From an uncultured Bacteroidota bacterium (lineage in GTDB: Bacteria > Bacteroidota > Bacteroidia > Bacteroidales > WCHB1-69): DNA of 64,000 nucleotides. The notes under the pieces were generated by a model, which was not told where the DNA came from, made no database searches, and saw nothing but the letters and a program-made list of their open reading frames with translations. The first letter of the stretch is position 1; every line of letters starts with the position of its first letter. Location of the stretch: assembly GCA_902786595.1 (NCBI GenBank), contig CADADB010000002.1, forward strand, positions 158,011-222,010, written 5' to 3'. Below are positions 6,677-63,167 of the stretch, piece by piece. The translations under genes and the position numbers were made by a program.

Positions 6677-6728
6677 GGCTGCCAACAGTCAACAGCCAAT
6701 GGCCAACAGCGAATAGCTAAAAGCTAAT
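6677..6728. repeat. Degenerate period-7 tandem array (CCAACAG/CCAATGG/GCTAAAA)
   Basis: ggctgccaacagtcaacagccaatggccaacagcgaatagctaaaagctaat. Confidence 0.8.
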
Positions 6729-6748
6729 TTCCCAATTCACATTTTTTG

Positions 6749-6756
6749 TATTTTTG
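6749..6756 (+). promoter_or_regulatory. -7 box TATTTTTG
   Basis: Matches TAnnTTTG, 65 nt upstream of the ATG at 6821. Confidence 0.5.
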
Positions 6757-6820
6757 CCGTTGGTTTAAAAGAATGGAATTACCAAACTAAAAAATATATT
6801 TATCAATAAATCAAAAAGAT

Positions 6821-8086
6821 ATGTCAGTCATTAAACCCTTTAGAGGATTCCGTCCTCCGAAAGAAATCGTTGAAAAATTAGCTTCTCGTCCTTACGACGT
6901 GTTGAATTCAGAAGAGGCCCGCAAGGAATGTGAAGGCAACCCCTACAGCTTGTTGCATGTCACCAAGGCCGAAATCGACCTTCCGGTGGGTACCGATGAG
7001 CATTCTCTCGAAGTGTATCTTCAGGTGGTGAAAAACTACAACAGCTTCAAGGATTACGGCTGGTTGGTGCAGGACAAAGAGGAGAAACTCTACATCTACG
7101 CCCAAAGCATGAATCCGACAGCTGCTGACGCGAAATGGCAATATGGTATCGTGGCTTGCGCCTACAGCGAGGACTATGTTAACAAGATCATCAAGAAACA
7201 CGAGTTGACCCGCAAGGACAAAGAGGAAGACCGCATGAAACACGTGCGCATCACCAACGCCAATGTGGAGCCGGTGTTCTTCGCATATCCCGCAGTTGCC
7301 CGCATTGACGAAATCGTGGCTTCCGTGACCGCCAAGGAACCGGTTTACGACTTCGTTGCCAAGGAAGACGGCTTCGGTCACCGTTTCTGGGTGATTGACG
7401 ACCGCAAGCTCATTGACGAGCTGGTGGAACTCTTCGCCACTAAAGTGCCCGCCATGTACATCGCCGACGGTCACCACCGTAGCGCGGCAGCCGCTCTCGT
7501 GGGTCAGGAGAAGAAAGAGCACAACCCGAACCACACCGGCAAGGAGGAGTACAACTACTTCATGACGGTGATTTTCCCGGACAACCAGCTCAACATCATC
7601 GACTACAACCGCGTGGTGAAAGACCTCAACGGTCTGACCAAGGAGCAGTTCCTCAACGCTGTTGGCGAGGCCTATACGGTGGAAGATATGGGCACGGACA
7701 TTTACAAACCTAGCAAATTGCATGAGTTCAGCATGTATCTGGACGGACATTGGTACAAGATGAACGCCAAACCCGGCACGTTCAACGACAGCGATCCCAT
7801 CGGTGTTCTGGATGTCACCATCCTCAGCAACCTTGTGCTTGACAAGATTTTGGGTATCAAGGATCTGCGTACCGACAAGCGCATTGACTTCGTGGGTGGT
7901 ATCCGCGGTCTCGGTGAGTTGAAACGCCGTGTCGATAACGGTGAGATGAAGGTGGCTTTCGCCCTCTATCCTGTTTCCATGCAGCAGATTATCGACATTG
8001 CTGACACTGGCAACATCATGCCTCCCAAAACCACCTGGTTTGAGCCGAAGTTGCGTTCAGGCCTTGTTATTCACGAATTAGCATAA
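6821..8086 (+). CDS. DUF1015-family protein
   Basis: 421 aa. The N-terminus MSVIKPFRGFRP and the ADGHHR motif are typical of DUF1015. Confidence 0.8.
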   Translation: MSVIKPFRGFRPPKEIVEKLASRPYDVLNSEEARKECEGNPYSLLHVTKAEIDLPVGTDEHSLEVYLQVVKNYNSFKDYGWLVQDKEEKLYIYAQSMNPTAADAKWQYGIVACAYSEDYVNKIIKKHELTRKDKEEDRMKHVRITNANVEPVFFAYPAVARIDEIVASVTAKEPVYDFVAKEDGFGHRFWVIDDRKLIDELVELFATKVPAMYIADGHHRSAAAALVGQEKKEHNPNHTGKEEYNYFMTVIFPDNQLNIIDYNRVVKDLNGLTKEQFLNAVGEAYTVEDMGTDIYKPSKLHEFSMYLDGHWYKMNAKPGTFNDSDPIGVLDVTILSNLVLDKILGIKDLRTDKRIDFVGGIRGLGELKRRVDNGEMKVAFALYPVSMQQIIDIADTGNIMPPKTTWFEPKLRSGLVIHELA

Positions 8087-8088
8087 AA

Positions 8089-9018
8089 ATGTTCAAAGTT
8101 CCCGTTTTACTCATACTATATAATAGAGTAGAGGAAACGCACGACGTATTTCAAGTATTACGCACGGTGCAGCCTACTCAGCTTTATGTGGCAGGTGATG
8201 CCGCGCAGCCGGATTCCATGTTGGACCGTATGCGCACTTATCAGGCAAGAGCCGTCATCCAGCCCGAGTGGCCGTGCCAGGTGCACAAATTATGGCAGGA
8301 CAATCATCTGGGGAAATCCCAGATGATTGCCACCGCTATAAAATGGTTTTTCGAACAAGAGGAGGAGGGTATCATCCTGTTTGACGATACTGTGCCGGGA
8401 TATGATTTCTTCCCCTATTGCGAACAGTTGCTCGAAAAATACCGTAACGACAAGAAGATTTATAGTATCGGTGGCTTCTATTGGCGCCATAGAAGTCGGA
8501 AAAGATACAAAAAAAGGATGAAAAAAGGGGAATCTTCCTACTTTTTCTCCGCCTATGCCTCCACCTGGGGCTTCGCCACCTGGAAAAACCGCTGGAACGA
8601 TTTCACTCTTTCCATGGACCAATATACCAGGGAGGGTTTCGAGAAGATGATAGAACCATACATGAATAAGAAAAAACAGAAAATGTATTGGATCAATCGC
8701 TTCAACAGTCTCAAGAAGTACAAGGCCTCCTATTGGGCTTACCAGTACAATTTCCACATTTGGGCGCACGAGGGGCTTTGCATAACCCCTTACCTCAATT
8801 TGGTGTCCAACGTGGGGTTCCGCAAGCAAGCCGAACGCAAAATCCGCCATCTGAAACGCAATGCCTATCCTATCATGCCGTTGGTCCACCCGACGGACAT
8901 CCAGCAGGATTTTGGTGAGGATCGCTATATGTTCAGGCATATCTTCAACAGTGCCTACATCACCTTGTTTAAGGAATGGCTTAATGATTTGGTGTCTGGT
9001 AATAAGACGGAGGGTTAG
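8089..9018 (+). CDS. Putative nucleotide-diphospho-sugar transferase (HlpA-like)
   Basis: 309 aa. The N-terminal VPVLLILYNRVEET...YVAGD resembles GT-A fold transferases. The assignment is from memory only. Confidence 0.55.
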   Translation: MFKVPVLLILYNRVEETHDVFQVLRTVQPTQLYVAGDAAQPDSMLDRMRTYQARAVIQPEWPCQVHKLWQDNHLGKSQMIATAIKWFFEQEEEGIILFDDTVPGYDFFPYCEQLLEKYRNDKKIYSIGGFYWRHRSRKRYKKRMKKGESSYFFSAYASTWGFATWKNRWNDFTLSMDQYTREGFEKMIEPYMNKKKQKMYWINRFNSLKKYKASYWAYQYNFHIWAHEGLCITPYLNLVSNVGFRKQAERKIRHLKRNAYPIMPLVHPTDIQQDFGEDRYMFRHIFNSAYITLFKEWLNDLVSGNKTEG

Positions 9019-9096
9019 AATGTGACTCTAACTATGACTTAGGCAAGAGTTTCAACTTCTTGCATTTAACTATTACTAATACTGATAAACCAAACA

Positions 9097-9969
9097 ATGG
9101 AGAAAAAACTGACGTTCAAAAAGGTTTTGCAAGAGGCGAAGAATTATTTCTTCATCTTTTTGGGGTTGGCTATGTTCACTTTCGGGTGGTCAGCGTTTCT
9201 GACGCCATACGAGGTGTCAGGAGGTGGTGTGGCGGGTGCGGCCTCCATTCTCTATTTCGCCACGAAGATCCCCATTGGCCTCACCACCTTTGCCCTAAAT
9301 GCCATCTTAATTGCTATCGCGTGGAAGATTCTAGGAACCAAGTTTTGTGTCAATTCGCTGATATGCACTGTGGTGATGAGTGTTTTCTTCTCCATATTCC
9401 AGCCACTGTTCCCCAAACCGCTTGTGGATGACATGTTTATGAGTGTCATCATTGGGTCGGCGATAGCGGCGTATGGAATCGGTATGGCCATCAACTGGGG
9501 CGGCAACACCGGAGGCGTTGACATTATCGCCTTGATGGTCGGGAAATACCGCAATATCTCTTACGGGCGGGTCAGCTTGCTCTCCAATGTCGTTATAGTG
9601 GGTGCTTCCTACTTTGTGCTTTACGATGTCCAAAAATTGGTTTACAGTTTTGTGGTGTTGTTGGTTTCCATCATCATCTCCGATCTGGTGATAGACGGAT
9701 ACCGGCAGACGTATCAGTTTATGGTTTTCTCCCAGAAAAACCATGAGATTGCCCAAAGAATCAATTCCAGCTTACATCGCGGAGCCACGTTTCTGAAAGG
9801 ATACGGTTCCTACAACCAACAGGAGAGCGATGTGCTGTTGATTGTGGCGCATAAAACGGATAAGGGTGCCATCACTCGCATTATCAAAGATATAGACCCT
9901 AACGCTTTCATTACTATCTCGAAAACAGCCAGTGTGTTCGGCAAGAATTTCGACAATATTAAGATATGA
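9097..9969 (+). CDS. YitT-family membrane protein (DUF2179 C-terminus)
   Basis: 290 aa with multiple TM segments, a GGGVAGAASILY motif and a soluble C-terminal domain. Confidence 0.8.
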   Translation: MEKKLTFKKVLQEAKNYFFIFLGLAMFTFGWSAFLTPYEVSGGGVAGAASILYFATKIPIGLTTFALNAILIAIAWKILGTKFCVNSLICTVVMSVFFSIFQPLFPKPLVDDMFMSVIIGSAIAAYGIGMAINWGGNTGGVDIIALMVGKYRNISYGRVSLLSNVVIVGASYFVLYDVQKLVYSFVVLLVSIIISDLVIDGYRQTYQFMVFSQKNHEIAQRINSSLHRGATFLKGYGSYNQQESDVLLIVAHKTDKGAITRIIKDIDPNAFITISKTASVFGKNFDNIKI

Positions 9970-10745
9970 AGAAAGATTTCGAACCCGTGGAGGCGCGGGT
10001 GAACGCCAAAATCAACATTGGCTTGCAGATTGTACGCAAACGTCCTGACGGTTACCACGATTTGCAGACGGTTTTTTACCCCACGGATTATTTCACGGAT
10101 TTTCTGCGCATTTCCCCGTCCGAGCAGGAAATTGTATTCAATATGGAGAGCGTGGAAGATTTGGGCGTTGCCGATAACAATCTTTGTGTCAAGGCGTTCC
10201 GTTTGCTACAGAACGACTTTGGGATTTCCAATGTGGAGATATTTCTGCGCAAGGGGATTCCTTCGGGCGCGGGTTTGGGCGGGGGTTCCGCGGATGCCGC
10301 TTTCACGCTCAGGATGCTTCGAGACATTTTCCAACTGCCTGTTTCTGAGGAGAAAATGGTGGAATACGCCCTACAGCTGGGCAGTGACGTTCCATTCTTC
10401 CTGTATAACAAGCCGGTGTACGCCACAGGGCGTGGGGAAGTGCTCACCCCCATTGACCTGGATCTGTCTTCTTATCGGTTAAAAATCGTTAAACCCGACA
10501 TTCACATCTCCACCAGGGAAGCATACGCTGGTGTGACTCCGCATGAATCTGACATTTTCCTTCCGGAAATTCTGAGAAACAGCCCAGAAGATTGGAGAAA
10601 TTTGGTGGTCAATGATTTTGAGGAATCGTTGTTTAAGAAAATACCCGCGTTAAAAATTGTGAAAGAGGCGTTGTATCACGAGGGTGCGCTTTACGCCTCC
10701 ATGTCGGGCAGCGGCTCCGCTTTTTTCGGAGTGTTCGGTGAATAG
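9966..10745 (+). CDS. ispE: 4-diphosphocytidyl-2-C-methyl-D-erythritol kinase
   Basis: KINIGLQIV..RPDGYHDL and the GHMP kinase motif GIPSGAGLGGGSADAA. Overlaps yitT by 4 nt. Confidence 0.92.
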   Translation: MKKDFEPVEARVNAKINIGLQIVRKRPDGYHDLQTVFYPTDYFTDFLRISPSEQEIVFNMESVEDLGVADNNLCVKAFRLLQNDFGISNVEIFLRKGIPSGAGLGGGSADAAFTLRMLRDIFQLPVSEEKMVEYALQLGSDVPFFLYNKPVYATGRGEVLTPIDLDLSSYRLKIVKPDIHISTREAYAGVTPHESDIFLPEILRNSPEDWRNLVVNDFEESLFKKIPALKIVKEALYHEGALYASMSGSGSAFFGVFGE

Positions 10746-10754
10746 TGAATGGTG

Positions 10755-10790
10755 AGCCAACAGCCAACAGCTAATAGCCAATAGCCAAAA
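10755..10790. repeat. Period-7 array (AGCCAAC/AGCTAAT)
   Basis: agccaacagccaacagctaatagccaatagccaaaa, between convergent genes. Confidence 0.8.
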
Positions 10791-10791
10791 A

Positions 10792-11247
10792 TCACTTTTC
10801 CGTTTGTTTGTTTCTTTTGAAATTAAAGAAACGAGCTTTTCTTTTATAGACAAAAATGCTGTTCAATACATAATTCAACAAGCCGACTGGCACAGCCATG
10901 ATGGTGAGGTTTAGGTAATTGTTATGGCTGCCAAGATGTTCCAGCAGGGCGATTCCACCGATATTGAGAAGGTAAGTGAATGTTGTGACGGCAAGGAAGC
11001 GGAGAATCAGTTTGTTGTCCTTGTTCTTGAACACCAAGATGCCATAAGTCTTGAAATTGAAGAGGATGCTGACAATAGTGGCGATGAAGTTGGAAACGAT
11101 GTAGGCGTGGTTGAGTTTGAGGAGGTGTTCGAAGATAAAGAGAAAGACATAGTTGACGAACAAGCCAAAGGCCGTGTTCAGCATGGCTACCAGCACAAAC
11201 CGGATGAACTGGGGTTCAAAATACCGTTTCAAAAATGTCTTTATCAC
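10792..11247 (-). CDS. GtrA-family membrane protein
   Basis: 151 aa with four TM segments. N-terminus FIRFVLVAMLNTAFG is typical of GtrA. Confidence 0.75.
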   Translation of the reverse strand: MIKTFLKRYFEPQFIRFVLVAMLNTAFGLFVNYVFLFIFEHLLKLNHAYIVSNFIATIVSILFNFKTYGILVFKNKDNKLILRFLAVTTFTYLLNIGGIALLEHLGSHNNYLNLTIMAVPVGLLNYVLNSIFVYKRKARFFNFKRNKQTEK

Positions 11248-11265
11248 GTATTAACTTTAAGACGG

Positions 11266-11273
11266 CAAAAATA
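11266..11273 (-). promoter_or_regulatory. -7 box TATTTTTG (minus strand)
   Basis: CAAAAATA on the plus strand, 18 nt upstream of the gtrA-like ATG. Confidence 0.5.
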
Positions 11274-12125: not shown

Positions 12126-12135
12126 AAAAACAATG

Positions 12136-12793: not shown

Positions 12794-12833
12794 CAATAGC
12801 CAAAAGCCAAAAGCTAATAGCCAACAGCCAAAA
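12794..12833. repeat. Period-7 array (AGCCAAA/AGCTAAT)
   Basis: caatagccaaaagccaaaagctaatagccaacagccaaaa. Confidence 0.8.
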
Positions 12834-12836
12834 ATA

Positions 12837-13355: not shown

Positions 13356-13430
13356 GGTAATGGTTATGGGTTATGGGTTATGGGTTATTGAGGGTTATTG
13401 GTTATGGGTTATTGGTTAGGAGGTTAAGGT
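13356..13430. repeat. Period-7 array (GGTTATG), G3-tract rich
   Basis: ggtaatggttatgggttatgggttatgggttattgagggttattggttatgggttattggttaggaggttaagg. Abuts the cvpA ATG. Confidence 0.9.
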
Positions 13431-17778: not shown

Positions 17779-17825
17779 GGTTATAGGTTATGAGTTATAG
17801 GTTATTGAATGGTTATTGGTTATAA
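17779..17825. repeat. Period-7 array (GGTTATA/GGTTATT) at the mlaE-mlaF junction
   Basis: ggttataggttatgagttataggttattgaatggttattggttata. Confidence 0.85.
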
Positions 17826-24348: not shown

Positions 24349-24354
24349 TGTATT

Positions 24355-24414
24355 AAGGTTTAGGGTTTAAGGTTTAAGGTTAAAAGGTTAGGAGGTTAGA
24401 AGGTAAAAGGTTAA
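24355..24414. repeat. Period-7 array (AAGGTTT/AAGGTTA)
   Basis: aaggtttagggtttaaggtttaaggttaaaaggttaggaggttagaaggtaaaaggttaa. Confidence 0.85.
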
Positions 24415-26353: not shown

Positions 26354-26383
26354 TGTAGAGACGTTTCCTGAAACGTCTCTACA
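26354..26383. repeat. GTAGAGACG palindromic element, T-subtype (H4)
   Basis: TGTAGAGACGTTTCCTGAAACGTCTCTACA, between the sigma-gene stop and the parE start. Confidence 0.9.
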
Positions 26384-26488: not shown

Positions 26489-27637
26489 TCACTGCTCACC
26501 GATAACCTGATACACCGTGTCCGACACGATGGTGGTGTCGCGGATCACGACGGTCCGGCGGACGGGCACCTTTTGGGTGATGATGACGGGGTCGGGATTC
26601 GTTGTTTCTTCCGTTTTCGCTAATGCGGCGGGTGGTGTCCCGACAACGCTGGCGGGTGACGTTTCGGCGTCGGTCCGTAGGGGCGAATAATTATTCGCCC
26701 CTACAACGGAATTTGTTCCTACAACGGATTTCGTCCCTACAACAGAATCTGTCGCCACAACGCGTTCCGTCAATGTATTCGTGTTAGGAGATGCAACCGT
26801 ATCAGGAGACATTGCGCGCACCGTCTCTACCATCGGGGACGGATTATTGGCCGGGTTTGGGGCGACGGGGTGGTGACGGCCCGCCTGCCAACCGACGGCG
26901 CCGCCCGTGATGCCCGCAGCCGTGACGAGGAGGAGGGTGGCCTTGTGCGCCGCGATAGCGGTGACGAATTTGCCCGGGGAGGTGGCCGCCGTTTGGACGA
27001 TTCCGGCGGCGGAATCCATTCGCAATCCCGACAATTTGGAACGGTACAACCGGTCCAACCGGCGGGAATCGGCGTTGGTTCGTTTCAGGATAAAAAGCAG
27101 GGGTATCATAAGCAATCCTTTCCTCTTGTTCTCTTTTTGTTTGTATTTGTCTGTGAGCATTTGGCCCAGACGCACGCGGGCCCGGTGGTGCAACTGCTTG
27201 GAGTAGGCCACCGAGATGTCGAGCAGTCCCGCGATGCGCCGGTGCGAGTATCCTTCGATGGCGTAGAGGTTGAAGACCGTCCGTTGCTGTTCCGGCAGCT
27301 GCTGGACGGTTTCCAACAGCTCCTTCTCTGTGAAGTCGGCGGTCCAAATCGGTTCGGTGTCTTCGTCTGGGCGTTCGGCGGCGGGTTCCGACTCCAAGGC
27401 GATGAAATCGGGCTTTTGTCGCAGGTAGTCGATGCAGTGGTTCACGGCGATGCGGGTCAGCCAGGCATCGAAGCGGCCGAAGGCGCGGTAGGCCTTGAAG
27501 GTTTCCATTGCCTTCAGGAACACGTCCTGCGCCAGATCCTGCGCCACCGTCCAGTCGTTGACATAGCGGTAGCAGATCCCGACAATCCTGCCGTGCCCCC
27601 TCCGGTACTGCTTCTCCCAAAATTTCGCCTTGTCCAT
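26489..27637 (-). CDS. ECF-type sigma-70 factor fused to a transmembrane segment and a low-complexity extracytoplasmic tail
   Basis: Probable start MDKAKFW at 27637. Region 2: DLAQDVFLKAMETF...DAWLTRIAVNHCIDYLRQ. Region 4: LPEQQRTVFNLYAIEGYSHRRIAGLLDISVAYSKQLHHRAR. About 200 further residues follow with one hydrophobic helix (ATLLLVTAAGITGGAVGW). Confidence 0.8.
   Translation of the reverse strand: MDKAKFWEKQYRRGHGRIVGICYRYVNDWTVAQDLAQDVFLKAMETFKAYRAFGRFDAWLTRIAVNHCIDYLRQKPDFIALESEPAAERPDEDTEPIWTADFTEKELLETVQQLPEQQRTVFNLYAIEGYSHRRIAGLLDISVAYSKQLHHRARVRLGQMLTDKYKQKENKRKGLLMIPLLFILKRTNADSRRLDRLYRSKLSGLRMDSAAGIVQTAATSPGKFVTAIAAHKATLLLVTAAGITGGAVGWQAGRHHPVAPNPANNPSPMVETVRAMSPDTVASPNTNTLTERVVATDSVVGTKSVVGTNSVVGANNYSPLRTDAETSPASVVGTPPAALAKTEETTNPDPVIITQKVPVRRTVVIRDTTIVSDTVYQVIGEQ
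26677..26704. repeat. GTAGGGG-type perfect palindrome inside the sigma-tail CDS
   Basis: GTAGGGGCGAATAATTATTCGCCCCTAC, 14 of 14 paired. Encodes VGANNYSPL. Confidence 0.9.
26701..26772. repeat. Four tandem 18-bp units inside the sigma-tail CDS
   Basis: ctacaacggaatttgttc / ctacaacggatttcgtcc / ctacaacagaatctgtcg / ccacaacgcgttccgtca. Encodes a (T/D)xSVVG hexapeptide repeat. Confidence 0.85.
26803..26830. repeat. Decayed GTAGAGACG element inside the sigma-tail CDS
   Basis: caGGAGACattgcgcgcacCGTCTCTAC. The right arm is intact and the left arm is decayed. Encodes VETVRAMSP. Confidence 0.6.
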
Positions 27638-27666: not shown

Positions 27667-27734
27667 ACTCACTAATCACTGATCACTAATCACTAATATC
27701 ATAACGTGAAAAAGTGAAAAGGTGACAGCCGGGG
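27667..27734 (-). promoter_or_regulatory. Conserved leader element, copy A (upstream of the sigma gene; lacks the -7 box)
   Basis: Minus-strand reading: CCCCGGCTGTCACCTTTTCACTTTTTCACGTTATGATATTAGTGATTAGTGATCAGTGATTAGTGAG. Confidence 0.75.
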
Positions 27735-29317: not shown

Positions 29318-29393
29318 TTCACTGCTCACTGTTCACTGTTCACTAATATCATAACGTGAAAAAGCGAAAAGGTGACAGTCGGGGGCAAAAATA
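29318..29393 (-). promoter_or_regulatory. Conserved promoter plus leader element, copy B
   Basis: -7 box TATTTTTG (plus-strand 29386-29393), then CCCCCGACTGTCACCTTTTCGCTTTTTCACGTTATGATATTAGTGAACAGTGAACAGTGAGCAGTGAA on the minus strand. Confidence 0.75.
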
Positions 29394-30267: not shown

Positions 30268-30350
30268 ATCACTGATCACTATTCACTATTTACTGCTCAC
30301 TATATTCATAACGTGAAAAAGTGAAAAGGTGACAGCCGGGGGCAAAAATA
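30268..30350 (-). promoter_or_regulatory. Conserved promoter plus leader element, copy C
   Basis: -7 box TATTTTTG (30343-30350), then CCCCCGGCTGTCACCTTTTCACTTTTTCACGTTATGAATATAGTGAGCAGTAAATAGTGAATAGTGATCAGTGAT. Confidence 0.75.
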
Positions 30351-31948: not shown

Positions 31949-32023
31949 GTCACTGTTCACTGCTCACTGTTCACTATATTCGTAACGTGAAAAAGTGAAA
32001 AGGTGACAGTCGGGGCAAAAATA
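31949..32023 (-). promoter_or_regulatory. Conserved promoter plus leader element, copy D (orphan)
   Basis: -7 box TATTTTTG (32016-32023), then CCCCGACTGTCACCTTTTCACTTTTTCACGTTACGAATATAGTGAACAGTGAGCAGTGAACAGTGAC. No cognate gene follows. It points into the 3' end of the ATPase gene. Confidence 0.7.
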
Positions 32024-35459: not shown

Positions 35460-35489
35460 TGTAGAGACGCGCCATGGCACGTCTCTACA
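35460..35489. repeat. GTAGAGACG palindromic element, C-subtype (H5)
   Basis: TGTAGAGACGCGCCATGGCACGTCTCTACA. Confidence 0.9.
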
Positions 35490-36956: not shown

Positions 36957-36984
36957 GTAGAGACGCGCCATGGCACGTCTCTAC
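36957..36984. repeat. GTAGAGACG palindromic element, C-subtype (H6)
   Basis: GTAGAGACGCGCCATGGCACGTCTCTAC. The core is identical to H5. Confidence 0.9.
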
Positions 36985-42907: not shown

Positions 42908-42969
42908 CAATTTTTTTGGGATTAGTGAGTAGTGAACAGTGATCGGTTCGGGGGCCATTATATGAGAAT

Positions 42970-43723: not shown

Positions 43724-43892
43724 GAGATCACTAAAAAACGCATTTTTTTGTAATCTTTCGGGCGTTTTTTCGTTATAAGAATAAACCAATTATGAATTAT
43801 GAATGATGATAATACGATAAAAACTACCGAGCTCTTGCCCCTACCGACCAACTGCTAACAGCCTATTGCCTATTAACTTAATACCCAACAAT

Positions 43893-45893
43893 ATGAAAAA
43901 CCAACTACCCCTTTTCGTGGCCACCTTCGCCACCCTTTTCATCACCCTCGCCGCCTCCGCCCAAGGCGAGTGGAAGTGGGCGCATTGCTGGAGCAGTACA
44001 CCACCCCCAAACAACTACGATGTTAACACTGTAAAAAACATCGATTTTGACGATGAGGGGAATGTTTATGTGTTGGGGACTTTTGGTGGAAACCTGACGT
44101 TTGACGGTAACACGTTCCTTTTCCTCAATAATCCAACTGTTTATTACAATTCCAGCTGGAGCGCATTTATTATGAAATATGACACTATGGGCAATATGTT
44201 GTGGCATAAAGAGGTGAAAACCAGTCGGGATAGCAGGTGCATACCCCACTGGTTGGAAGTGAGAGACAATAAAGTTTATGTCATGGGGAATGCTGGCCTG
44301 ACCGATGTGGATGCTTATTCCGATGATCAGGCTTGGCACTATTGGCTCGACACCTTGATAACCGGTTCTCAGGTGCGGCCTATCCCAAGAGATCAAAGGG
44401 TTCCGCCGTGTACGGTAGGACGATGGTCCTATTTGGCCACTTTTGACTTGGACGGAAACCTGTTGGACAGCCATTTCGTTCAGCCTTTCGGTCGAAAAAT
44501 ATATGCTAATAATATCCGTGCAGAAGAATATCTTTGCAACGAGGCGAGTTTAAATATCTCACCTTTTCATGTTGATGCGCAGGGGAATACATACATTTTC
44601 ACTAAATTAGTTTATGACGGCCCCAGCACCAATCCATATACCTTGGTGGTGGATGGCGACACCAACAGAAAATATGATATTTATTTTCCTGAAGGAAGCG
44701 ATGTCCCAGGCCCTTATTTCACAAATATAATGATGTATAAGTTTTCCCCAGATTGGGAATTGCTGTTCGCGAAACAATTGATAGATCATTCGGACGGTAT
44801 TGGACTTTCGATAGGAGACTCTATTAATCCATATACACCGTCCCTGTCTGGTTTTTCTGTTGATGAGGAAGGGAACTTCTACTTGTCTGGCCATTTTGTG
44901 ATTCCTAGTGAAGATATCTACTTTAATGTACCTCCCCAATTCCCTGTTCACATATATTGGGATAGTATTCATTATGTAACGATTCAGGATTATAGCTCTG
45001 ATATTACGCCTTTTATTATCAAATATAATGCGGACGGGGAACTTCTTTGGTGTAACCAGATATATACGCTCGGTTCTCATGATCCGAATCTTCCAGACCA
45101 TGCAAACAGCAATGTGTCGGGTTGTTATTATAATAATGGACATGTATATATGATAGGAGTGGGAGCTTATGGGCCACAGGGCAGCGTTTATTTTGATGAT
45201 CCGAGCCATCCGTTAAGCCAAATGGTGGAAAACCAACTCAACATCGGTTTTTTTGTCGGCTATGATGCCATGACGGGGCATTATGTCAGCCATGGTATTG
45301 TTCCGGCAAACAATTCAGGAACAGGGTTTCGCTTGGCGGCTCTCCACAACAGAGTCTTTGCCTATGCAATAGCAAATCTTATAAACCAAGCTTTTTACCA
45401 ATGGAGAGAAGACGGTTTGTTCATTCATGCGGATACCATATATTCCTCAAGTTCGTTTGGCTACGGCAATACGTATGTCAATAATCAAGGATATATGGCG
45501 ATTTCAGGCGAATGCCAATCTTCCGTAACGTTCTCTGACAACGTATCTGTTTGCAGCAGTCCAACAGTTTGCAAAAGTGCAGTCATCGCCCTCTATCATA
45601 ACCCCGAATTCACCACGCCATACGTGGGCATCCCCGCGTATGACAGGCTGAAGCCGGGGGTGCGGCTGTGGCCCAACCCCGCCACCGAGCGGATCACCAT
45701 CGAGAGCGAGGAGGAGTTCCTCATCATCTCCGTCTCCGTGGCCAACATGCAGGGCACTATCCTCACTCTCCTCCCCGTCAACGACGTGCGCTGCACCCTC
45801 AACGTCCACAATCTCGCCCCCGGCACTTACATTGCGCACGTGGAGACCAAGGCGGGAATCAACGATGTGAAGTTTGTGGTGGGGAGAAATTAA
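43893..45893 (+). CDS. SBBP-like beta-propeller repeat protein with T9SS type-A C-terminal sorting domain
   Basis: Signal peptide at the ATG 43893. Recurrent D..GN.Y..G motifs. CTD: LWPNPATERITIES...GTYIAHVETKAGINDVKFVV. Confidence 0.8.
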   Translation: MKNQLPLFVATFATLFITLAASAQGEWKWAHCWSSTPPPNNYDVNTVKNIDFDDEGNVYVLGTFGGNLTFDGNTFLFLNNPTVYYNSSWSAFIMKYDTMGNMLWHKEVKTSRDSRCIPHWLEVRDNKVYVMGNAGLTDVDAYSDDQAWHYWLDTLITGSQVRPIPRDQRVPPCTVGRWSYLATFDLDGNLLDSHFVQPFGRKIYANNIRAEEYLCNEASLNISPFHVDAQGNTYIFTKLVYDGPSTNPYTLVVDGDTNRKYDIYFPEGSDVPGPYFTNIMMYKFSPDWELLFAKQLIDHSDGIGLSIGDSINPYTPSLSGFSVDEEGNFYLSGHFVIPSEDIYFNVPPQFPVHIYWDSIHYVTIQDYSSDITPFIIKYNADGELLWCNQIYTLGSHDPNLPDHANSNVSGCYYNNGHVYMIGVGAYGPQGSVYFDDPSHPLSQMVENQLNIGFFVGYDAMTGHYVSHGIVPANNSGTGFRLAALHNRVFAYAIANLINQAFYQWREDGLFIHADTIYSSSSFGYGNTYVNNQGYMAISGECQSSVTFSDNVSVCSSPTVCKSAVIALYHNPEFTTPYVGIPAYDRLKPGVRLWPNPATERITIESEEEFLIISVSVANMQGTILTLLPVNDVRCTLNVHNLAPGTYIAHVETKAGINDVKFVVGRN

Positions 45894-45964
45894 GAATGCA
45901 GAATTCAGAATGGCGATGAGGCTGTAATACCCAGCAATTGTAAATCTCTGGAACAAAGCAATTT

Positions 45965-46755: not shown

Positions 46756-47004
46756 CCGCAACGCGGTATCTATCTCTATCCCAACCCCACGGACGGGCAG
46801 ATCACCGTGTGCGGCTACATGTATGGCTACCGCAGCATCGAGCTGCTCGACCTCCAGAGCCGCAAGCTGGCCACCCTCTTAGATTCGCCCCACGGCACGT
46901 CCCTGCCCGAAATCGACCTCTCGCCCTATCCCTCCGGCACCTACCTCGTGAAGATCAACTTCAACCGAGGGGTGAGCGTGGTGAGGAAAATAGTTAGGAG
47001 TTAG
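46756..47004 (+). pseudogene. Orphan T9SS type-A C-terminal domain (3' remnant of a cargo gene)
   Basis: The frame opens right after a TAA at 46753. It reads TQRGIYLYPNPTDGQITV...IDLSPYPSGTYLVKINFNRGVSVVRKIV. There is no passenger domain, signal peptide or start codon upstream. Confidence 0.7.
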
Positions 47005-47017
47005 CAGTTAGTAGTTG
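46992..47017. repeat. Period-7 array (AGTTAGN)
   Basis: agttaggagttagcagttagtagttg, covering the stops of both convergent ORFs. Confidence 0.7.
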
Positions 47018-47244
47018 CGCTGGTTATAACTTTCGGCAAGACTGTTTAATTTTTCTTTTGTAAGTTCTAATGTTTTTTGTATCTTTGCAGCGTCATTTTC
47101 CTGAGAAGCTCTAGTGACTAAAGGTCTGCTTATCAGTTCAGGAGAATGACTTTTTTGTTTCTTCATATTTTGCGTTTTTAGTTTATCTGGCGGGTGTCCG
47201 TCTGCATGGATATTATCAACAAGTTCAGCCTCGTTCTTTTTCAT
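47008..47244 (-). CDS. Small hydrophilic hypothetical protein (78 aa)
   Basis: Has its own -7 box TAACTTTG (47270-47277) 25 nt upstream. No recognised motif. Confidence 0.5.
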   Translation of the reverse strand: MKKNEAELVDNIHADGHPPDKLKTQNMKKQKSHSPELISRPLVTRASQENDAAKIQKTLELTKEKLNSLAESYNQRNY

Positions 47245-47776: not shown

Positions 47777-47885
47777 AAGCTAAGCAATAGGGACTTCTTC
47801 GTTAAACTCCACTCCGTTCTTATATCGTCCGGACACACGGACAACGTGCCGCTTCGCATCCCCGAACCTTTAACTCTACCTCTTC

Positions 47886-47913
47886 AATAACCAATAACCT
47901 ATAACCTATAACC
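47886..47913. repeat. Period-7 array (ATAACCN)
   Basis: ataaccaataacctataacctataacca, abutting the rlmH stop. Confidence 0.85.
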
Positions 47914-47914
47914 A

Positions 47915-48385
47915 TTAATGATGGTACGGCTCACCCTTCAAAATCGTACACGCCCGGTAGAGTTGCTCGGTGAAGATGAGGCGCACCATGATGTGCGGGA
48001 AGGTGAGCTTCGAGAGGGCCAGCTGCGCGTTCTGTCGGGCATAGACGGCTTCGGAGAAACCATAGGCACCGCCGATGACGAAGGTGAGCGTCTTCAACCC
48101 CGAGTTAGCACGCTGCTGGATGAACTCCGCGAACTGCACGGAGGTTTTCTCCTTGCCGCGCTCGTCCCATAACACCACGTACTCGTCCGACTCTATCTTC
48201 TTGAGTATCAGCTCGCCCTCGCGCTTTTTCTGCTCCTCCACCGGCATCGACTTGGCATTCTTCAGATACGGAATCGCCACGGTCTCGTACGGGATGTAGG
48301 TGGCGATTTTGGCCGTGTACTGCCGGATGGCCTCGTCAAAGATGTCGCCATCAGGTTTGCCGATCCATATTAATTTGATTTTCAT
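47915..48385 (-). CDS. rlmH: 23S rRNA (pseudouridine1915-N3)-methyltransferase
   Basis: 156-aa SPOUT fold with the typical MKIKLIWIGK start and the ending GEPYHH. Confidence 0.93.
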   Translation of the reverse strand: MKIKLIWIGKPDGDIFDEAIRQYTAKIATYIPYETVAIPYLKNAKSMPVEEQKKREGELILKKIESDEYVVLWDERGKEKTSVQFAEFIQQRANSGLKTLTFVIGGAYGFSEAVYARQNAQLALSKLTFPHIMVRLIFTEQLYRACTILKGEPYHH

Positions 48386-48392: not shown

Positions 48393-48422
48393 AGGCAATA
48401 GGCAATAGGGAACAGGGAATAG
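48393..48422. repeat. Period-7 array (GGCAATA/GGGAACA)
   Basis: aggcaataggcaatagggaacagggaatag. Confidence 0.8.
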
Positions 48423-48423: not shown

Positions 48424-48450
48424 GTAGAGACGCAAAAATTTTGCGTCTTA
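48424..48450. repeat. GTAGAGACG element, A-subtype with a decayed 3' arm (H7)
   Basis: GTAGAGACGCAAAAATTTTGCGTCTTA, 3 nt from the LRR-gene stop. Confidence 0.8.
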
Positions 48451-50045: not shown

Positions 50046-50073
50046 GTAGAGACGCAAAATTTTGCGTCTCTAC
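50046..50073. repeat. GTAGAGACG palindromic element, A-subtype (H8)
   Basis: GTAGAGACGCAAAATTTTGCGTCTCTAC, a perfect palindrome. Confidence 0.9.
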
Positions 50074-52260: not shown

Positions 52261-52288
52261 GTAGAGACGCACCATGGCACGTCTCTAC
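52261..52288. repeat. GTAGAGACG palindromic element, C-subtype (H9)
   Basis: GTAGAGACGCACCATGGCACGTCTCTAC. Its right arm supplies the TAG stop of the 1099-aa ORF. Confidence 0.9.
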
Positions 52289-55586: not shown

Positions 55587-55618
55587 AACCCTTAACCTTT
55601 AACCCTTAACCCTTAAAC
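55587..55618. repeat. Period-7 array (AACCCTT)
   Basis: aacccttaacctttaacccttaacccttaaac, filling the purA-stop to next-ATG gap. Confidence 0.9.
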
Positions 55619-56957: not shown

Positions 56958-56987
56958 TGTAGAGACGTTTCATGAAACGTCTCTACA
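56958..56987. repeat. GTAGAGACG palindromic element, T-subtype (H10)
   Basis: TGTAGAGACGTTTCATGAAACGTCTCTACA, a perfect 30-nt palindrome. Confidence 0.9.
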
Positions 56988-57570: not shown

Positions 57571-58158
57571 CTATTCAGCAGCCGGTTGTTCGGCTTCAGC
57601 GGCAGGTGCCTCTTCGGCAGCGGCAGCTTCTTCAGCGGCGGCCTCAGCGGCAGCGGCTTCAGCAGCTTCTTGTGCGGCCTTTGCCTGAGCAGCGGCGATT
57701 TCAGCGGCTTTGGCGGCCACTTTTGCGGAGATGGCTTCTTTCACTTTCGTCTCAGCGGCAAGACGTTCTTTCACGACTTTGCGCTTTGCCTCACGCTCTG
57801 CATTCTCGACATCCTTCAGCTTGGAGTTCTTCTCCTGCTTCCAGGCCTCGAATTTGCGTTGAGCTTCGTTCTCGCTGAAAGCGCCCTTAGCCACACCGCC
57901 TTTGAGGTGCTTCATCAAATAAACACCTTCACGTTTGAGAATCGCACGGGCAGTATCGGAAGGAGTGGCGCCCACTTCCAGCCAATACAAAGCTCTGTCA
58001 AAATTGATGTTCAATGTTGCAGGATTGGTCAGCGGGTTGTAGGTACCCAGATCCTCGATGAATCGTCCGTCACGTGGTGCTCGACCATCCGCAATTACAA
58101 GGTGGTAAAAAGGTTGGTTCTTCTTACCGCGTCTTTGTAATCTGATTCTTGTTGCCAT
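57571..58158 (-). CDS. rpsP: 30S ribosomal protein S16 with an Ala/Glu/Lys-rich C-terminal extension
   Basis: MATRIRLQRRGKKNQPFYHLVIAD core, followed by a ~100-aa low-complexity tail. Confidence 0.95.
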   Translation of the reverse strand: MATRIRLQRRGKKNQPFYHLVIADGRAPRDGRFIEDLGTYNPLTNPATLNINFDRALYWLEVGATPSDTARAILKREGVYLMKHLKGGVAKGAFSENEAQRKFEAWKQEKNSKLKDVENAEREAKRKVVKERLAAETKVKEAISAKVAAKAAEIAAAQAKAAQEAAEAAAAEAAAEEAAAAEEAPAAEAEQPAAE

Positions 58159-59738: not shown

Positions 59739-59755
59739 TATTTAAATTGAAAGCG

Positions 59756-59763
59756 CAAAAGTA
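59756..59763 (-). promoter_or_regulatory. -7 box TACTTTTG (minus strand), fucosidase
   Basis: CAAAAGTA on the plus strand. Confidence 0.5.
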
Positions 59764-59921
59764 AACAAAATAACATTACATCGAAGTTTTGGGATTCAGC
59801 CCTTGAATCTTGCGAAATTGATGATTTAACCTTTACTATCAATAGTGAAAATAATCGTAAACAATTAGTTTCCAGTGAAATATTTTTCTGATTTAGGGCT
59901 TGGAACGATTGAAAAAAAGCG

Positions 59922-59929
59922 TACCTTTG
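59922..59929 (+). promoter_or_regulatory. -7 box TACCTTTG, recA
   Basis: 28 nt upstream of the ATG at 59958. Confidence 0.55.
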
Positions 59930-59957
59930 CCCCCTGAAATCATTAAACCTATCAAGA

Positions 59958-60980
59958 ATGGAAAAAGAAGAAATTAAAAACAATGTGAATGCTGAGAAAC
60001 TGAAAGTGCTCAATTCTACACTCGAGAAACTTGAAAAAACTTTCGGAAAAGGTTCTATTATGCGTATGGGCGAGACCCATATTGAAGAGATGGACGTCAT
60101 ATCTACCGGTTCTATTGGCCTGGACACGGCACTCGGTGTCGGCGGATTCCCGAAAGGCCGTATTGTTGAAATCTATGGCCCTGAATCCTCCGGTAAGACC
60201 ACATTGGCCATCCACGCCATCGCGGAGGCGCAAAAACAGGGCGGTATCGCCGCTTTCATCGATGCGGAACACGCCTTCGATCGCTTCTATGCCGAAAAAT
60301 TAGGCGTGAATACCGCTGAACTGCTAATTTCACAACCCGACAACGGTGAGCAGGCGCTCGAAATCGCCGACAACCTCATCCGCTCCGGCGCCATTGACAT
60401 CATCGTCATCGACTCCGTAGCCGCCCTTACCCCGAAAAGCGAAATCGAAGGCGACATGGGCGACTCCAAGGTCGGCCTTCAGGCGCGCCTGATGTCACAA
60501 GCACTGCGCAAACTGACGGCAACCATCAACAAGACAGGTTGTTGCTGCATCTTCATCAACCAATTGCGTGAGAAAATCGGCATCATGTTCGGCAACCCGG
60601 AGACCACCACGGGCGGTAATGCCTTGAAGTTCTACGCCTCTGTGCGCCTAGATATTCGCCGCCAGACCCAAATCAAGGACGGAGACAAGGCCATCGGTAA
60701 CCACGTGAAAGTCAAGGTGGTAAAGAACAAAGTCGCGCCTCCGTTCCGCACAGCGGAGTTTGACATCATGTTCGGCGAAGGCATCTCCAAGTCGGGCGAA
60801 ATTGTCGATCTCGGTGTCGAATACAATATTATAAAGAAGTCCGGCTCCTGGTTCTCCTACGGCGACTCCAAACTCGCCCAAGGTCGCGACAGCGTGAAAC
60901 AGCTGCTCAACGACAACCCCGAACTCTCCGATGAAATCGAGGCCAAAATCCGCGAAGCCATCAAAGAAGGAATGAAGTAG
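59958..60980 (+). CDS. recA: Recombinase A
   Basis: [11 protein letters not shown] Walker A and [10 protein letters not shown]. Confidence 0.99.
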
Positions 60981-61001
60981 TTGCTGTTAGTATTTTCCAA
61001 T

Positions 61002-61031
61002 TGTAGAGACGTTTCAGGAAACGTCTCTACA
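61002..61031. repeat. GTAGAGACG palindromic element, T-subtype (H11)
   Basis: TGTAGAGACGTTTCAGGAAACGTCTCTACA, identical to H1. Starts 21 nt after the recA stop. Confidence 0.9.
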
Positions 61032-61053
61032 GCCAAAAGCAAAAAAAGACAGA

Positions 61054-62055
61054 ATGAAAAAAATTATCACCTGCCTATTGGCCTTGTTCTTAGTTCTCAG
61101 TTACGGTTGCCACAACAAGAGCAAGTACGCCGATCTGCCGCCAGAGCTGGCCGAATTGTGTCTGAATATCGACAAACACCCTAAAAAGTCCGAAAACTAC
61201 TACAAAAGAGCGCAATATTATTACTCACACGAGAACATTGACAAGGGTATCGCCGACATGCAGACGGCTATCAAGTTGCAACCCGACAGCAGCAAGTACT
61301 ATGTGATGCTCTCCGACCTCTACTTTGCGCAGCATGAAACCGACTTGACGGAGGAGATGTTGTTGAAGGCCATTTCCACTGATGAGGACAACAACGAAGC
61401 GAGACTGAAATTAGCTGAGTTGCAATTCCATACTCGTCAGTATGAGGATTGTGGAAAAACCATTGACGAGGCCGTACAGCGGCAGCCACACAATCCGAAA
61501 GCATACCTCATCAAGGCCTTCATGTTGAAAGATATGCAAGACACGGTGGGTTATCTGCGTATGTTACAGCTTGTTATCGACCAGGACCCTCGGGAGACCA
61601 AAGCGTTCCTTGAGCTCGGCTACTTCTACCAGCAGAAAAACGACCCGATAGCGATTTCTTATTATCAAAATGGGTTGAAAGCCGACCCCAATAATGTGGA
61701 ATTGCACTATAATTTAGGCAAGATGTTCCAGGATATGGACAAGCTGGAGGAGGCGGAACAGGAATACAAGACGGCCATAGCCATTGATTCTACGCATATT
61801 CCATCACTTAACAATCTGGGTTACTTATACTTGGATGATAATATCAAGAGATACGACGAAGCGGTGAAACTCTTCACGCAAGTGTTGCAGATTAATCCGC
61901 AGTTTGTGTATGCCATTTGCAACCGCGGGGTGGCGTATGAGTATTTGGGCAATTATGTGGCCGCTCGCAAGGATTATGAAGAAACCCTGAAGCTTTCCAC
62001 TAATTTCGAACCAGCCATTTTGGGACTTAACCGATTGGACAAACTGCAACATTAG
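61054..62055 (+). CDS. TPR-repeat lipoprotein
   Basis: Lipobox LVLSYGC and multiple 34-aa TPR units. Confidence 0.8.
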   Translation: MKKIITCLLALFLVLSYGCHNKSKYADLPPELAELCLNIDKHPKKSENYYKRAQYYYSHENIDKGIADMQTAIKLQPDSSKYYVMLSDLYFAQHETDLTEEMLLKAISTDEDNNEARLKLAELQFHTRQYEDCGKTIDEAVQRQPHNPKAYLIKAFMLKDMQDTVGYLRMLQLVIDQDPRETKAFLELGYFYQQKNDPIAISYYQNGLKADPNNVELHYNLGKMFQDMDKLEEAEQEYKTAIAIDSTHIPSLNNLGYLYLDDNIKRYDEAVKLFTQVLQINPQFVYAICNRGVAYEYLGNYVAARKDYEETLKLSTNFEPAILGLNRLDKLQH

Positions 62056-62061
62056 GCGCGT

Positions 62062-63087
62062 ATGAACGAGAATTTAGATCCTACCCGGCAACATCTTTCC
62101 GCCTCGGACAAAGAGTTTGAGCGCGCCATACGCCCTGCGCAATTTACGGATTTCCAGGGGCAAAAACAGGTGCTGGAGAATCTGATGGTCTTCGTGCATG
62201 CCGCCAAAGGACGTGGCGAGGCACTGGATCACGTTTTGTTGCACGGGCCTCCTGGACTGGGCAAGACCACCTTGTCACACATCATCGGCAACGAGATGGG
62301 CGTGAACGTGCGTGTCACTTCCGGCCCTGTCATTGACAAGCCCGGCGATTTGGCAGGACTGCTCACCAATTTGGAACCCAACGATGTCCTGTTTATTGAT
62401 GAAATCCACCGATTGTCGCCTGTGGTGGAGGAGTATCTCTACTCAGCGATGGAGGACTACAAAATCGACATTATGATTGACAGTGGTCCGAGTGCTCGGA
62501 GCGTGCAGATTTCCATCAACCCGTTCACACTGGTGGGCGCCACCACGCGGTCGGGTCTGCTGACGGCACCGCTGAGGTCGCGTTTCGGCATTAACTTGCG
62601 TCTGCAATACTATGATGCCCAGACACTTGGCAATATCATTAAACGGTCGGCTTCCATTTTGGACATTCCCATCGACGAGGATGCCGCCTACGAAATCGCT
62701 TCCCGCAGTCGTGGCACTCCGCGTATCGCCAACCTGTTGTTGCGACGTGTCCGCGACTTCGCCCAGATCAAAGGCGACGGCACCATCACCCTGCCCATCA
62801 CGCAGATTGCCTTGACGGCGTTGAATGTTGATAAGCACGGATTGGACGAAATGGACAACCGTATCCTGAGCACCATCATCGAGAAGTTCAAGGGTGGTCC
62901 GGTGGGCTTGAGTACTATCGCCACTGCCGTGGGCGAAGACCCTGGCACCATCGAGGAGGTCTATGAGCCGTTCTTGATCCAGGAAGGTTACCTGATGCGT
63001 ACCCCCCGTGGCCGTGAAGCCACCGATCTGGCATTCACGCACCTGGGGAAGTCGAGGTATGTGTCGGGGCAGGGGGAACTGTTTTGA
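62062..63087 (+). CDS. ruvB: Holliday junction branch-migration helicase RuvB
   Basis: [18 protein letters not shown] and [16 protein letters not shown]. Confidence 0.98.
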
Positions 63088-63112
63088 ATTAAGAATTAAG
63101 AATTAAGAATGA
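63086..63112. repeat. Period-7 array (GAATTAA)
   Basis: gaattaagaattaagaattaagaatga, starting at the ruvB stop. Confidence 0.9.
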
Positions 63113-63134
63113 GGGAGAGGTAACTACTATCCCA

Positions 63135-63167
63135 ACAATTATCCATTATCCATTATCAATTCATTAC
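63135..63167. repeat. Period-7 array (CCATTAT)
   Basis: caattatccattatccattatcaattcattaca. Confidence 0.8.

Follow-up and report, generated by a model that had tools for sequence, protein, structure and literature searches.

The 64,000-nucleotide (nt) stretch of contig CADADB010000002.1 from an uncultured Bacteroidales bacterium (assembly GCA_902786595.1, positions 158,011 to 222,010 of the forward strand; hereafter, the window) carries 19 tandem arrays of degenerate heptanucleotides, which sum to 669 nt or ~10% of its intergenic DNA. The finding of period-7 arrays is real, robust and far above chance. The explanation we prefer, and consider probable, is that these arrays are simple sequence repeats (SSRs) of the kind known as short tandemly repeated repetitive (STRR) sequences or as "long SSRs" with units of 5–11 nt (LSSR5-11), and that they multiplied within a single clade of rumen Bacteroidales, of the rank of a genus, through the birth of arrays on the spot from heptamers at gene ends, their change by steps of 7 nt and a filtering of their orientation by the context of translation initiation and termination. 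The host lineage, the coexistence of several unit families and the clear orientation rules are new here, while the kind of repeat itself has already been described.

The arrays of the window were called with Tandem Repeats Finder (TRF), and the letters were read directly in addition. TRF reported 18 period-7 arrays of 3.1–7.7 copies each (Table 1). This confirmed every site listed in a preliminary description of this DNA except a weak run of three hand-read units at 42921, and added the array at 45888, which was absent from that list; the unit motifs given there agreed with the sequences read directly. Each array is intergenic or overlaps a gene by the stop codon only. The claim that the arrays abut start or stop codons held for most of them but not for all, and the array said to fill the mlaE–mlaF junction does so.

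For the examination of chance, a second, period-specific detector was applied to the whole window with a strict threshold (score of at least 12). It returned ten arrays of period 7 and none of periods 4–6 and 8–12, and in 40 dinucleotide-preserving shuffles of the window no array of any period reached this score. In a second control, only the 6,740 nt of the 39 intergenic regions were shuffled, which keeps the A/T-rich composition of the spacers. The shuffled sequence again did not match the real one: 14 period-7 arrays were observed versus 0.017 expected, and arrays of periods 5, 6, 8, 9 and 10 numbered zero in this test of the window. As the arrays are letter-identical in independent assemblies from other samples, they are not an assembly artefact. 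The Rfam covariance models, used at the gathering score, matched no array of the window; their only matches there were two tRNA genes (19–90 and 1387–1457).

Table 1. Heptanucleotide arrays and associated features of the window, with insertions seen in relatives (locus handles L089 and so on). T9SS, type 9 secretion system; ECF, extracytoplasmic function; core, the 32-nt element described in the text.
Feature	Coordinates	Strand	TRF start	Context
(GCCAACA/AGCTAAN)n array, ~7 units (TRF, direct reading)	6681–6731	+	6681	38 nt past the stop of a T9SS type-B protein gene (4042–6642), before the TAnnTTTG box of the gene at 6821
Two-unit proto-array GAATAG-TGAATGG				Ahead of the 10755 array; includes the ispE stop
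(AGCCAAN)5 array	10755–10790	none	10755	Gap of 46 nt, filled by the array, where ispE (stop at 10745) and a GtrA-like gene (stop at 10792) converge
(AGCCAAN)6 array	12794–12835	none	12794	Between the convergent stops of Ham1/RdgB (12763) and a CvpA-like gene (12837)
(NATAACC)n array, ~9 units	13356–13424	-	13362	Ends 3 nt before the CvpA-like ATG (13352)
(NATAACC)6 array	17779–17823	-	17778	Fills the junction from the MlaE stop to the MlaF start
(TTAAACC/CTAACCT)n array, ~8 units	24353–24414	-	24353	4 nt before the ATG of a DUF4410 gene (24348)
Copy A array, (NAGTGAN)4	27667–27699	-	27669	Upstream of an ECF sigma-factor gene (26489–27637)
Copy A conserved core, 32 nt	27703–27734	-		
Copy B array, (NAGTGAN)4	29318–29345	-	29318	15 nt upstream of the start of a 282-aa gene (29302)
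Copy B conserved core	29353–29384	-		
Copy C array, (NAGTGAN)5	30268–30303	-	30276	8 nt upstream of the start of the 286-aa paralogue (30259)
Copy C conserved core	30310–30341	-		
Copy D array, (NAGTGAN)4	31949–31976	-	31950	Remnant without an intact downstream gene; 16 nt past the stop of a plus-strand ATPase gene
Copy D conserved core	31984–32015	-		
Weak three-unit array, TCACTNN on the minus strand	42922–42943	-		Between the stop of a DUF6169 gene and the TAnnTTTG box before IleRS
(GAATTAT)3 array	43788–43809	+	43788	Divergent spacer, 83 nt upstream of the start of a T9SS protein gene (43893)
(AGAATNC)3 array	45888–45911	+	45888	Includes the stop codon of the T9SS protein gene (43893–45893)
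(AGTTAGN)3.6 on the plus strand, CTAACTN in gene sense	46992–47016	-	46992	Overlaps the stop of a 78-aa open reading frame (47008–47244)
(GGTTATN)4-5 in gene sense	47885–47918	-	47885	Overlaps the rlmH stop (47915)
(TTGCCTA/TTCCCTN)4 array	48393–48422	-	48393	7 nt before the rlmH ATG (48385), after a post-stop hairpin
(TTAAGGG)4 array	55587–55616	-	55587	Fills all 33 nt between purA (stop) and a TldD/PmbA-like gene (start)
Perfect (GAATTAA)3.6 array	63086–63110	+	63086	Its first TAA terminates ruvB (63087)
(CCATTAT)3.4 array	63135–63161	+	63138	47 nt past the ruvB stop, upstream of the next gene's TAnnTTTG box
TIGR02436 insertion	L089 9420–9950; also L097, L098, L108			Between MlaE and MlaF
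TIGR02436 insertion, degraded	L090 5806–5977; L118 9899–10000			Between MlaE and MlaF

The distribution of the arrays was examined in 80 loci around the AspRS gene, taken from species-representative genomes, and 67 loci around the MlaF gene, taken from metagenomes of the rumen and of other origin. The window itself is part of a metagenomic contig of 309,554 bp. Judged by AspRS, the genomes closest to it are uncultured rumen Bacteroidales, with RUG312 at 97% protein and ~85% DNA identity; these neighbours, together with the T9SS and FISUMP proteins of the window, led to the rejection of a cyanobacterial origin, which the STRR heptamers had suggested. The MlaE–MlaF synteny is kept in only one of the 80 AspRS loci (L001), and the MlaF search of metagenomes was used for the comparison of that junction. 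The window contains 23.4 period-7 arrays per 100 kb, and the clade whose MlaF is at least 92% identical (0.44 Mb) contains 21.7. The density falls to 10.6 in the group with MlaF identity of 73–78% and to 0 in the group at or below 62%; it is 1.2 in four genomes at 85–87% AspRS identity and 3.6 in 75 other Bacteroidota loci (1.26 Mb). Within these two-marker neighbourhoods, the clade stands at ~22 arrays per 100 kb over 0.5 Mb of its sequence versus 0–4 in most other Bacteroidales loci. In the clade, 96 arrays have period 7 versus 0–17 at other periods, and period 7 is the commonest in every group. After the removal of near-identical copies, 95 of 97 arrays proved to be intergenic. Short-read contigs from other samples stop inside arrays (the ends of L082 and L083 at window position 13386–13387 and the start of L085 at 47888); since three independent contigs terminate in this way, the arrays fragment the assemblies of this organism.

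The comparison of orthologous junctions showed arrays at different stages. At the MlaE–MlaF junction, the genes of the outgroups are 0–25 nt apart and free of repeats, and three clade members have the compact junction TAATTATG (CTGTAATTATG), which was taken as ancestral. The other clade members carry (ATAACCN)n, (CTTAAAC)n, (GGTTTAA)n, (TGTACAW)n, (TTAGTAG)n or (AGTCAAA/GTTAAAG)n at exactly the same place; (GGTTTAA)n, found in L101/L104, is the reverse complement of the (CTTAAAC)n family. The MlaE stop codon and the synonymous position of the last Leu codon co-vary with the array unit: CTA-TAA-CC goes with ATAACC, CTT-TAG-TTAG with TTAGTAG and TTG-TAA-TG with TACAATG. In the window, the first unit includes the TAA of MlaE and the last lies 5 nt before the ATG of MlaF. 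Between relatives, the MlaF leader has 4 versus 6 units. The ispE gene of the window ends in GAA-TAG-TGAATGG-TG, which amounts to two units only, whereas L087/L088, which are 93% identical, have (TGAATAG)6 at this place and L138/L140 have (GCAATAG)n. In both of these pairs the gene's own TAG lies inside the first unit, the terminal GAATAG being the seed.

The leader of the CvpA-like gene reads CTC-(NATAACC)n-ATTAC in the clade, with n = 2–5 in exact 7-nt steps. In the window, this array makes up nearly all of an 85-nt divergent spacer, and its orthologues across the clade have 2–8 units. L001/RUG312 has an (AGTTAGT)n array at the position instead, and the array in L001 has the edge AGTTAGTAGTTGCG in common with the window array at 46992. 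The array at 12794 is orthologous throughout the clade and differs by approximately one unit plus substitutions. These exact 7-nt steps at CvpA and ispE support the earlier suggestion that the arrays are slippage-prone spacers. Meanwhile, a comparison of unit numbers between strains, which had been proposed as a check, revealed no indels in the arrays at 12794, 47886 and 48393 in two strains 98.7% and 99.7% identical. As unit number steps between species and not between these strains, we conclude that the arrays change on the timescale of speciation, unlike contingency loci. A hypervariable copy number at the strain level was rejected.

The position of the arrays was evaluated against uniform placement of each array within its own spacer. 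Of the arrays in the clade's 65 co-directional spacers, 25 are at most 5 nt away from the upstream stop (8.2 expected) and 18 at most 10 nt away from the downstream start (12.6 expected); 15 of the 65 arrays include the upstream stop codon. Where the downstream gene of the window has a TAnnTTTG box, which we take to be the Bacteroidetes -7 promoter element, the array stands beside the upstream stop, ahead of the box. Inside operons (mlaE–mlaF, purA–tldD-like and leucine-rich repeat (LRR)–rlmH), it is the next ATG that the arrays adjoin, often behind a hairpin that follows the stop. The array at 24353 is likewise located downstream of such a hairpin.

The 26 arrays at most 15 nt from a start were then compared with ordinary leaders. 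The sense strand of the start-abutting arrays consists of A, C, G and T in the proportions of 0.36, 0.30, 0.06 and 0.28, while array-free leaders have 0.14 G and 0.17 C. A superfamily of units containing AACC dominates this set, and the window array at 55587 is one of its only two G-rich exceptions. For the orientation tests, orthologues were collapsed into gene-by-family events. C exceeded G at starts in 13 of 15 events (p = 0.007) and in 5/5 events of unrelated Bacteroidales lineages, while G exceeded C at stops in 23 of 31 (p = 0.011) and in 6/6 elsewhere in Bacteroidales. The bias beside stops can be accounted for by seeding from stop heptamers, because TAG and TGA have G and never C.

The mean folding energy predicted for positions -40 to -1 was -0.69 kcal/mol for the array leaders versus -2.80 kcal/mol for ordinary leaders (p = 2e-7), and the reverse complements of the array leaders returned to -2.78 kcal/mol. 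The start-abutting arrays are predicted to be nearly structure-free, G-poor leaders, which match the composition of the phylum's leaders lacking a Shine-Dalgarno (SD) sequence. The array-free leaders of all Bacteroidales groups, in which SD-like words are rare, show a sense bias of their own for TAACC (33:5), AAACC (55:10) and ATAAC (70:17). A clade-specific "TAACC" ribosome-binding signal was rejected on this ground. As Bacteroidales leaders in general share the A/C-rich, G-poor bias, that of the start arrays may reflect a selective filter rather than a dedicated function. The earlier proposal of unstructured leaders for SD-independent initiation is supported for the start-abutting subset, as a property of these arrays.

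In the explanation that we prefer, what the sequences show is that new arrays form on the spot, within ancestral spacers of very small size and mostly out of a heptamer containing the stop codon of the upstream gene, and that they then lengthen, shorten and drift by exact 7-nt steps over the time in which species diverge. They are confined to non-coding DNA, and their orientation depends on the adjoining boundary: stop-containing units with G > C in the sense strand on the stop side, and A/C-rich, G-poor units on the start side. The generator would be unequal exchange or slippage during replication, with a preference for 7 nt. Since 7 is not divisible by 3, selection would purge arrays from open reading frames (ORFs); it would also purge G-rich orientations from translation-initiation regions. 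The survivors beside an ATG may be acceptable, possibly even favourable, single-stranded ribosome-loading leaders for the SD-independent initiation typical of Bacteroidota.

The preliminary description knew of no such system, which was wrong: intergenic heptameric SSRs are treated in PMC4679880 and PMC4692102, together with the study of Mrazek et al. (2007) and the STRRs of Calothrix cited there. According to the summaries of Mrazek et al. (2007) in these two papers, heptamers are the commonest class of prokaryotic long SSRs with units of 5–11 nt, and polymerase slippage was proposed for them. In Xanthomonas and Nostoc, intergenic heptamers are over-represented and occur between the same gene pairs in sister species, with variation in length and sequence (PMC4692102); examples are the GGGAATC repeats of Xanthomonas and the GGGGAYT repeats of Nostoc (PMC4679880, PMC4692102). 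The arrays described here share with LSSR5-11 a 7-nt unit, typically 2–10 and often imperfect units, a strong excess that is confined to intergenic DNA, restriction to particular lineages (here within the loci sampled), inverted pairs and the proposal of slippage. The head-to-tail 7-nt units, the excess of period 7, the intergenic location and the whole-unit variation between related genomes are all features of LSSR5-11 and STRR repeats that we found here. They differ from LSSR5-11 in the host, an uncultured rumen Bacteroidales bacterium, in having many families instead of one dominant G-rich unit, in A/T-rich units without G-quadruplex potential and in an orientation that follows the adjacent start or stop codon.

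Two other systems are close to ours. TAACTGA arrays occur in marine Beggiatoaceae, some cyanobacteria and five Bacteroidetes (MacGregor 2015, PMC4679880). They have 2–6 units, are mostly intergenic and forward-oriented, end a few nt before SD-less starts and have no predicted folding; some overlap the end of the upstream ORF, and the stop codons on their forward strand limit placement (PMC4679880). The same paper notes other heptamer repeats in Bacteroidetes, including Paludibacter, a member of Bacteroidales. A subset of the arrays of the window's clade is similarly forward-oriented and ends a few nt before starts with rare SD-like words. However, our arrays have more than ten unit families, of which CTAACTN is the nearest, and a large share of them abut stop codons or sit between convergent genes. 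No exact TAACTGA tandem was found in the window or in any of the 153 loci searched, and membership in that family was rejected; the sole match in the window, at 61090, has two mismatches and is at chance level. The second system is the cyanobacterial STRRs, which are tandem heptamers of Calothrix and Nostoc, as cited in PMC4692102, and which have been used for fingerprinting (PMC5088731). As in our clade, several families are dispersed over many intergenic sites of one genome. They belong to another phylum, though, with other unit sets and no sign of common descent, and our arrays were not assigned to them, given the Bacteroidales host and the differing units. No description of such arrays in rumen Bacteroidales was found within the literature searched.

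Several points weigh against our explanation. The copy number is unchanged between strains 98.7–99.7% identical, so slippage would be slow at best. ATAACC arrays at unrelated genes have a common 5' edge (YTC-AATAACC), a common 3' edge (ATAACC-ATT) and a common order of unit variants, and at many loci the variable position of the AGTTAG arrays is alternately T and C, their last letters being AGTTG(C/G). The C content of start-abutting arrays (30% versus 17% in ordinary leaders) could exceed what passive filtering yields. Sampling covered the neighbourhoods of only two marker genes, the independent junctions are modest in number (15+5 and 31+6 events), and gene starts came from a crude ORF caller. 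Finally, the slippage model accounts neither for the size of the step, 7 nt, nor for the proliferation in this clade in particular.

Since independent local slippage does not obviously predict the shared edges and variant order, copy-paste is kept alive as the main rival, although we consider it unlikely. It states that a limited set of array cassettes spread by ectopic recombination, gene conversion or the activity of a mobile element or enzyme, slippage only adjusting their length. Unrelated genes do share higher-order strings, namely CAATAACCAATAACCCATAACCTATAACC with its YTC 5' edge and ATT 3' edge, and AGTTAGTAGTTAGCAGTTAG...AGTTGCG. The same unit families are present in the window and in L001, at ~85% nucleotide identity, arrays coincide with breaks of synteny, and short-read contigs end within them. 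Moreover, in six relatives a TIGR02436 four-helix-bundle gene (E = 8e-32) is inserted between MlaE and MlaF and flanked by inverted arrays, (TGTACAA)n and (TGTACAT)n. The terminal heptamers of ispE and MlaE, however, are clear cases of local birth, many unit families are singletons, and most arrays have no associated transposase-like gene or terminal structure. The shared units could also be convergent, as stop-containing seeds and the A/C-rich constraint on leaders limit the viable units. It should be noted that L135 has a short leftover array, that other relatives have partly deleted copies of the inserted gene, and that the TIGR02436 family includes the intervening-sequence (IVS) proteins of 23S rRNA.

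A variant of this idea goes one step further. The arrays may be actively propagating intergenic cassettes, co-opted as G-poor, structure-free ribosome-loading leaders inside operons, rather than passive debris of slippage. It draws on the shared edges and variant order, the inverted arrays around the four-helix-bundle gene and the arrays at synteny breakpoints, and we hold it to be a rather improbable alternative. If it were true, such cassettes would amount to a lineage-specific rewriting of translation-initiation regions in bacteria that do not rely on SD pairing.

The arrays could instead be dedicated cis-regulatory elements, that is, mRNA or DNA sites for S1, a Csp-like or another RNA-binding protein or a transcription factor, which together would form a post-transcriptional regulon. 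The strong orientation bias beside start codons and the dominance of the AACC-containing superfamily there would suit such a role, as would the fact that arrays persist throughout the clade ahead of MlaF and of the CvpA-like gene, and the same hypothesis has a precedent for the TAACTGA repeats of Beggiatoaceae (PMC4679880). However, the orientation bias equals that of the ordinary leaders of the phylum, arrays also lie between convergent stops, and the genes served are unrelated housekeeping genes. With more than ten unrelated units, and with the same junction carrying different families, a reverse complement (GGTTTAA in L101/L104) or nothing in close relatives, the earlier suggestion of protein-binding arrays is doubtful as a general role, and we give the regulatory explanation little credence.

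The preliminary description also emphasized that many arrays place a stop triplet in every frame and listed multi-frame translational stops or insulators among their possible roles; as such, they would be selected to end any ribosome in any frame between genes. The hand-checked cases were correct: stops occur in 3/3 frames at 13356 and 17779 and in the four AGTGANN arrays on the minus strand, and at 47886, 55587 and 63086 on the plus strand, while 10755 and 12794 miss some frames, as stated. Including these two, full coverage is lacking on both strands at 10755, 12794, 45888 and 48393 and on the plus strand at 29318, 31949 and 63135, which makes seven arrays without it on one or both strands. 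A stop triplet is present in 65 of the 95 consensus units versus 42.1 ± 4.1 in letter-shuffled units, and in raw counts stops fill all three sense frames of 21 of the 26 start-abutting arrays versus 11/26 for the antisense strand, as insulators would predict. This asymmetry vanished once orthologues were collapsed (sense versus antisense, 12 v 9 of 15 events at starts and 23 v 19 of 31 at stops). The enrichment itself is accounted for by seeding from stop-containing heptamers together with arithmetic: because 7 mod 3 = 1, any stop-bearing heptamer reaches all three frames within three units. In addition, every upstream gene already has its own stop, and the literature treats stop content as a constraint on placement (PMC4679880). 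Thus, the every-frame stops appear to be an arithmetic by-product of the period, the A/T-rich units and the seeding from stop codons, without strand bias, and not an insulator or a selected function; selection for insulation is very improbable.

Least credible of all are phase-variation (contingency) loci switching the expression of neighbours by frequent gain and loss of units, as tandem repeats do adjoin start codons and differ in unit number between species, but the three arrays compared in near-identical strains have no indels, the units are imperfect, ORFs are free of the arrays and promoter spacers mostly so, and the neighbours are housekeeping genes (the aspS neighbourhood, mlaEF, purA, rlmH and ruvB). 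The SSRs of known contingency loci have units of 1–5 nt in host-adapted pathogens (Haemophilus; Moraxella, with the AGAT repeats of uspA2), whereas here an imperfect 7-nt unit is stable between strains, stands beside housekeeping genes and gives no sign of on/off switching.

The four TCACTGN arrays (27667, 29318, 30268 and 31949) resemble each other because they are parts of one duplicated cassette. On the minus strand, each copy consists of a 32-nt core, exact in 4/4 copies, followed by an (NAGTGAN)n array. The core reads CCCCGRCTGTCACC-N15-CGTTA (TGTCACC-N15-CGTTA), which resembles an ECF-type -35/-10 pair and is either a promoter-like element or a leader element. Copies B and C have a TAnnTTTG box directly upstream of the core, and the genes that follow them are paralogous, of 282 and 286 aa, with no function assigned. 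The core, the ECF sigma-factor gene and the two paralogues may form an autoregulated ECF regulon. The core was looked for in the fetched loci of relatives and found in none.

The window also contains dispersed palindromes. One family is a perfect 28-nt palindrome, GTAGAGACG-N10-CGTCTCTAC, with a 9-bp stem around a 10-nt centre. Its eight copies lie at 2239–2266, 26355–26382, 35461–35488, 36957–36984, 50046–50073, 52261–52288, 56959–56986 and 61003–61030, with a variant at 48424–48447. Those compared with the ORF list (2239, 50046, 52261 and 61003) stand just beyond gene ends, and this type of hairpin is present in 25 fetched Bacteroidales loci; it looks like a repetitive extragenic palindrome (REP)-like or terminator-like element. 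A second palindrome, GTAGGGGCGAATAATTATTCGCCCCTAC, at 26677–26704 is followed by 3.6 copies of an 18-nt repeat (CCCTACAACGGAATTTGT) at 26699–26762, both of them within the long tail of the ORF that follows its ECF sigma domains. The GTAGGGGCGAATAATTATTCGCCCCTAC palindrome also occurs in L001 (4011–4038 and 12493–12520), L093, L096, L099, L107 and L136, and in relatives its hairpin lies between the MlaE stop and the heptamer array.

Other observations concern single sites. The plus-strand end of the array at 13356 contains an SD-like AGGAGG (13414–13424), 13 nt before the ATG of a 1,189-aa protein with FISUMP and type-9-secretion sorting domains, which is unusual given the rarity of such words in the leaders of this group. 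The units AAACCCT/AACCCTT at 24353–24414 and 55587–55616 (TTTAGGG/AAGGGTT on the opposite strand) match the plant-type telomere heptamer, which we regard as a coincidence. The 6681 array contains CAACAGT, apparently one of the STRR units of cyanobacteria. Repeats of 15, 18 and 21 nt at 57594–57669, inside the gene at 57571–58158, code for a C-terminal tail rich in Ala and Glu (…AAEAAAAEAAAEEAAAAEE…). Their periods are divisible by 3 and keep the reading frame, unlike the 7-nt arrays, which are strictly intergenic.

Heptamer repeats between genes became known decades ago in cyanobacteria and were afterwards recognized in Xanthomonas, Burkholderia and Beggiatoaceae; their function and origin, including the reason for 7 nt, have been puzzling. 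The clade described here is a dense natural series, in which the same junction is empty, holds a proto-array or holds different units in close relatives, and therefore birth, 7-nt growth and orientation filtering can be read from it directly. Through this clade, the repeats are further tied to a definite constraint, namely the SD-independent, G-poor, unstructured leaders of Bacteroidota. As the arrays break short-read assemblies and make up ~10% of the intergenic DNA, they bear on the quality of rumen metagenome-assembled genomes and on the calling of start codons.

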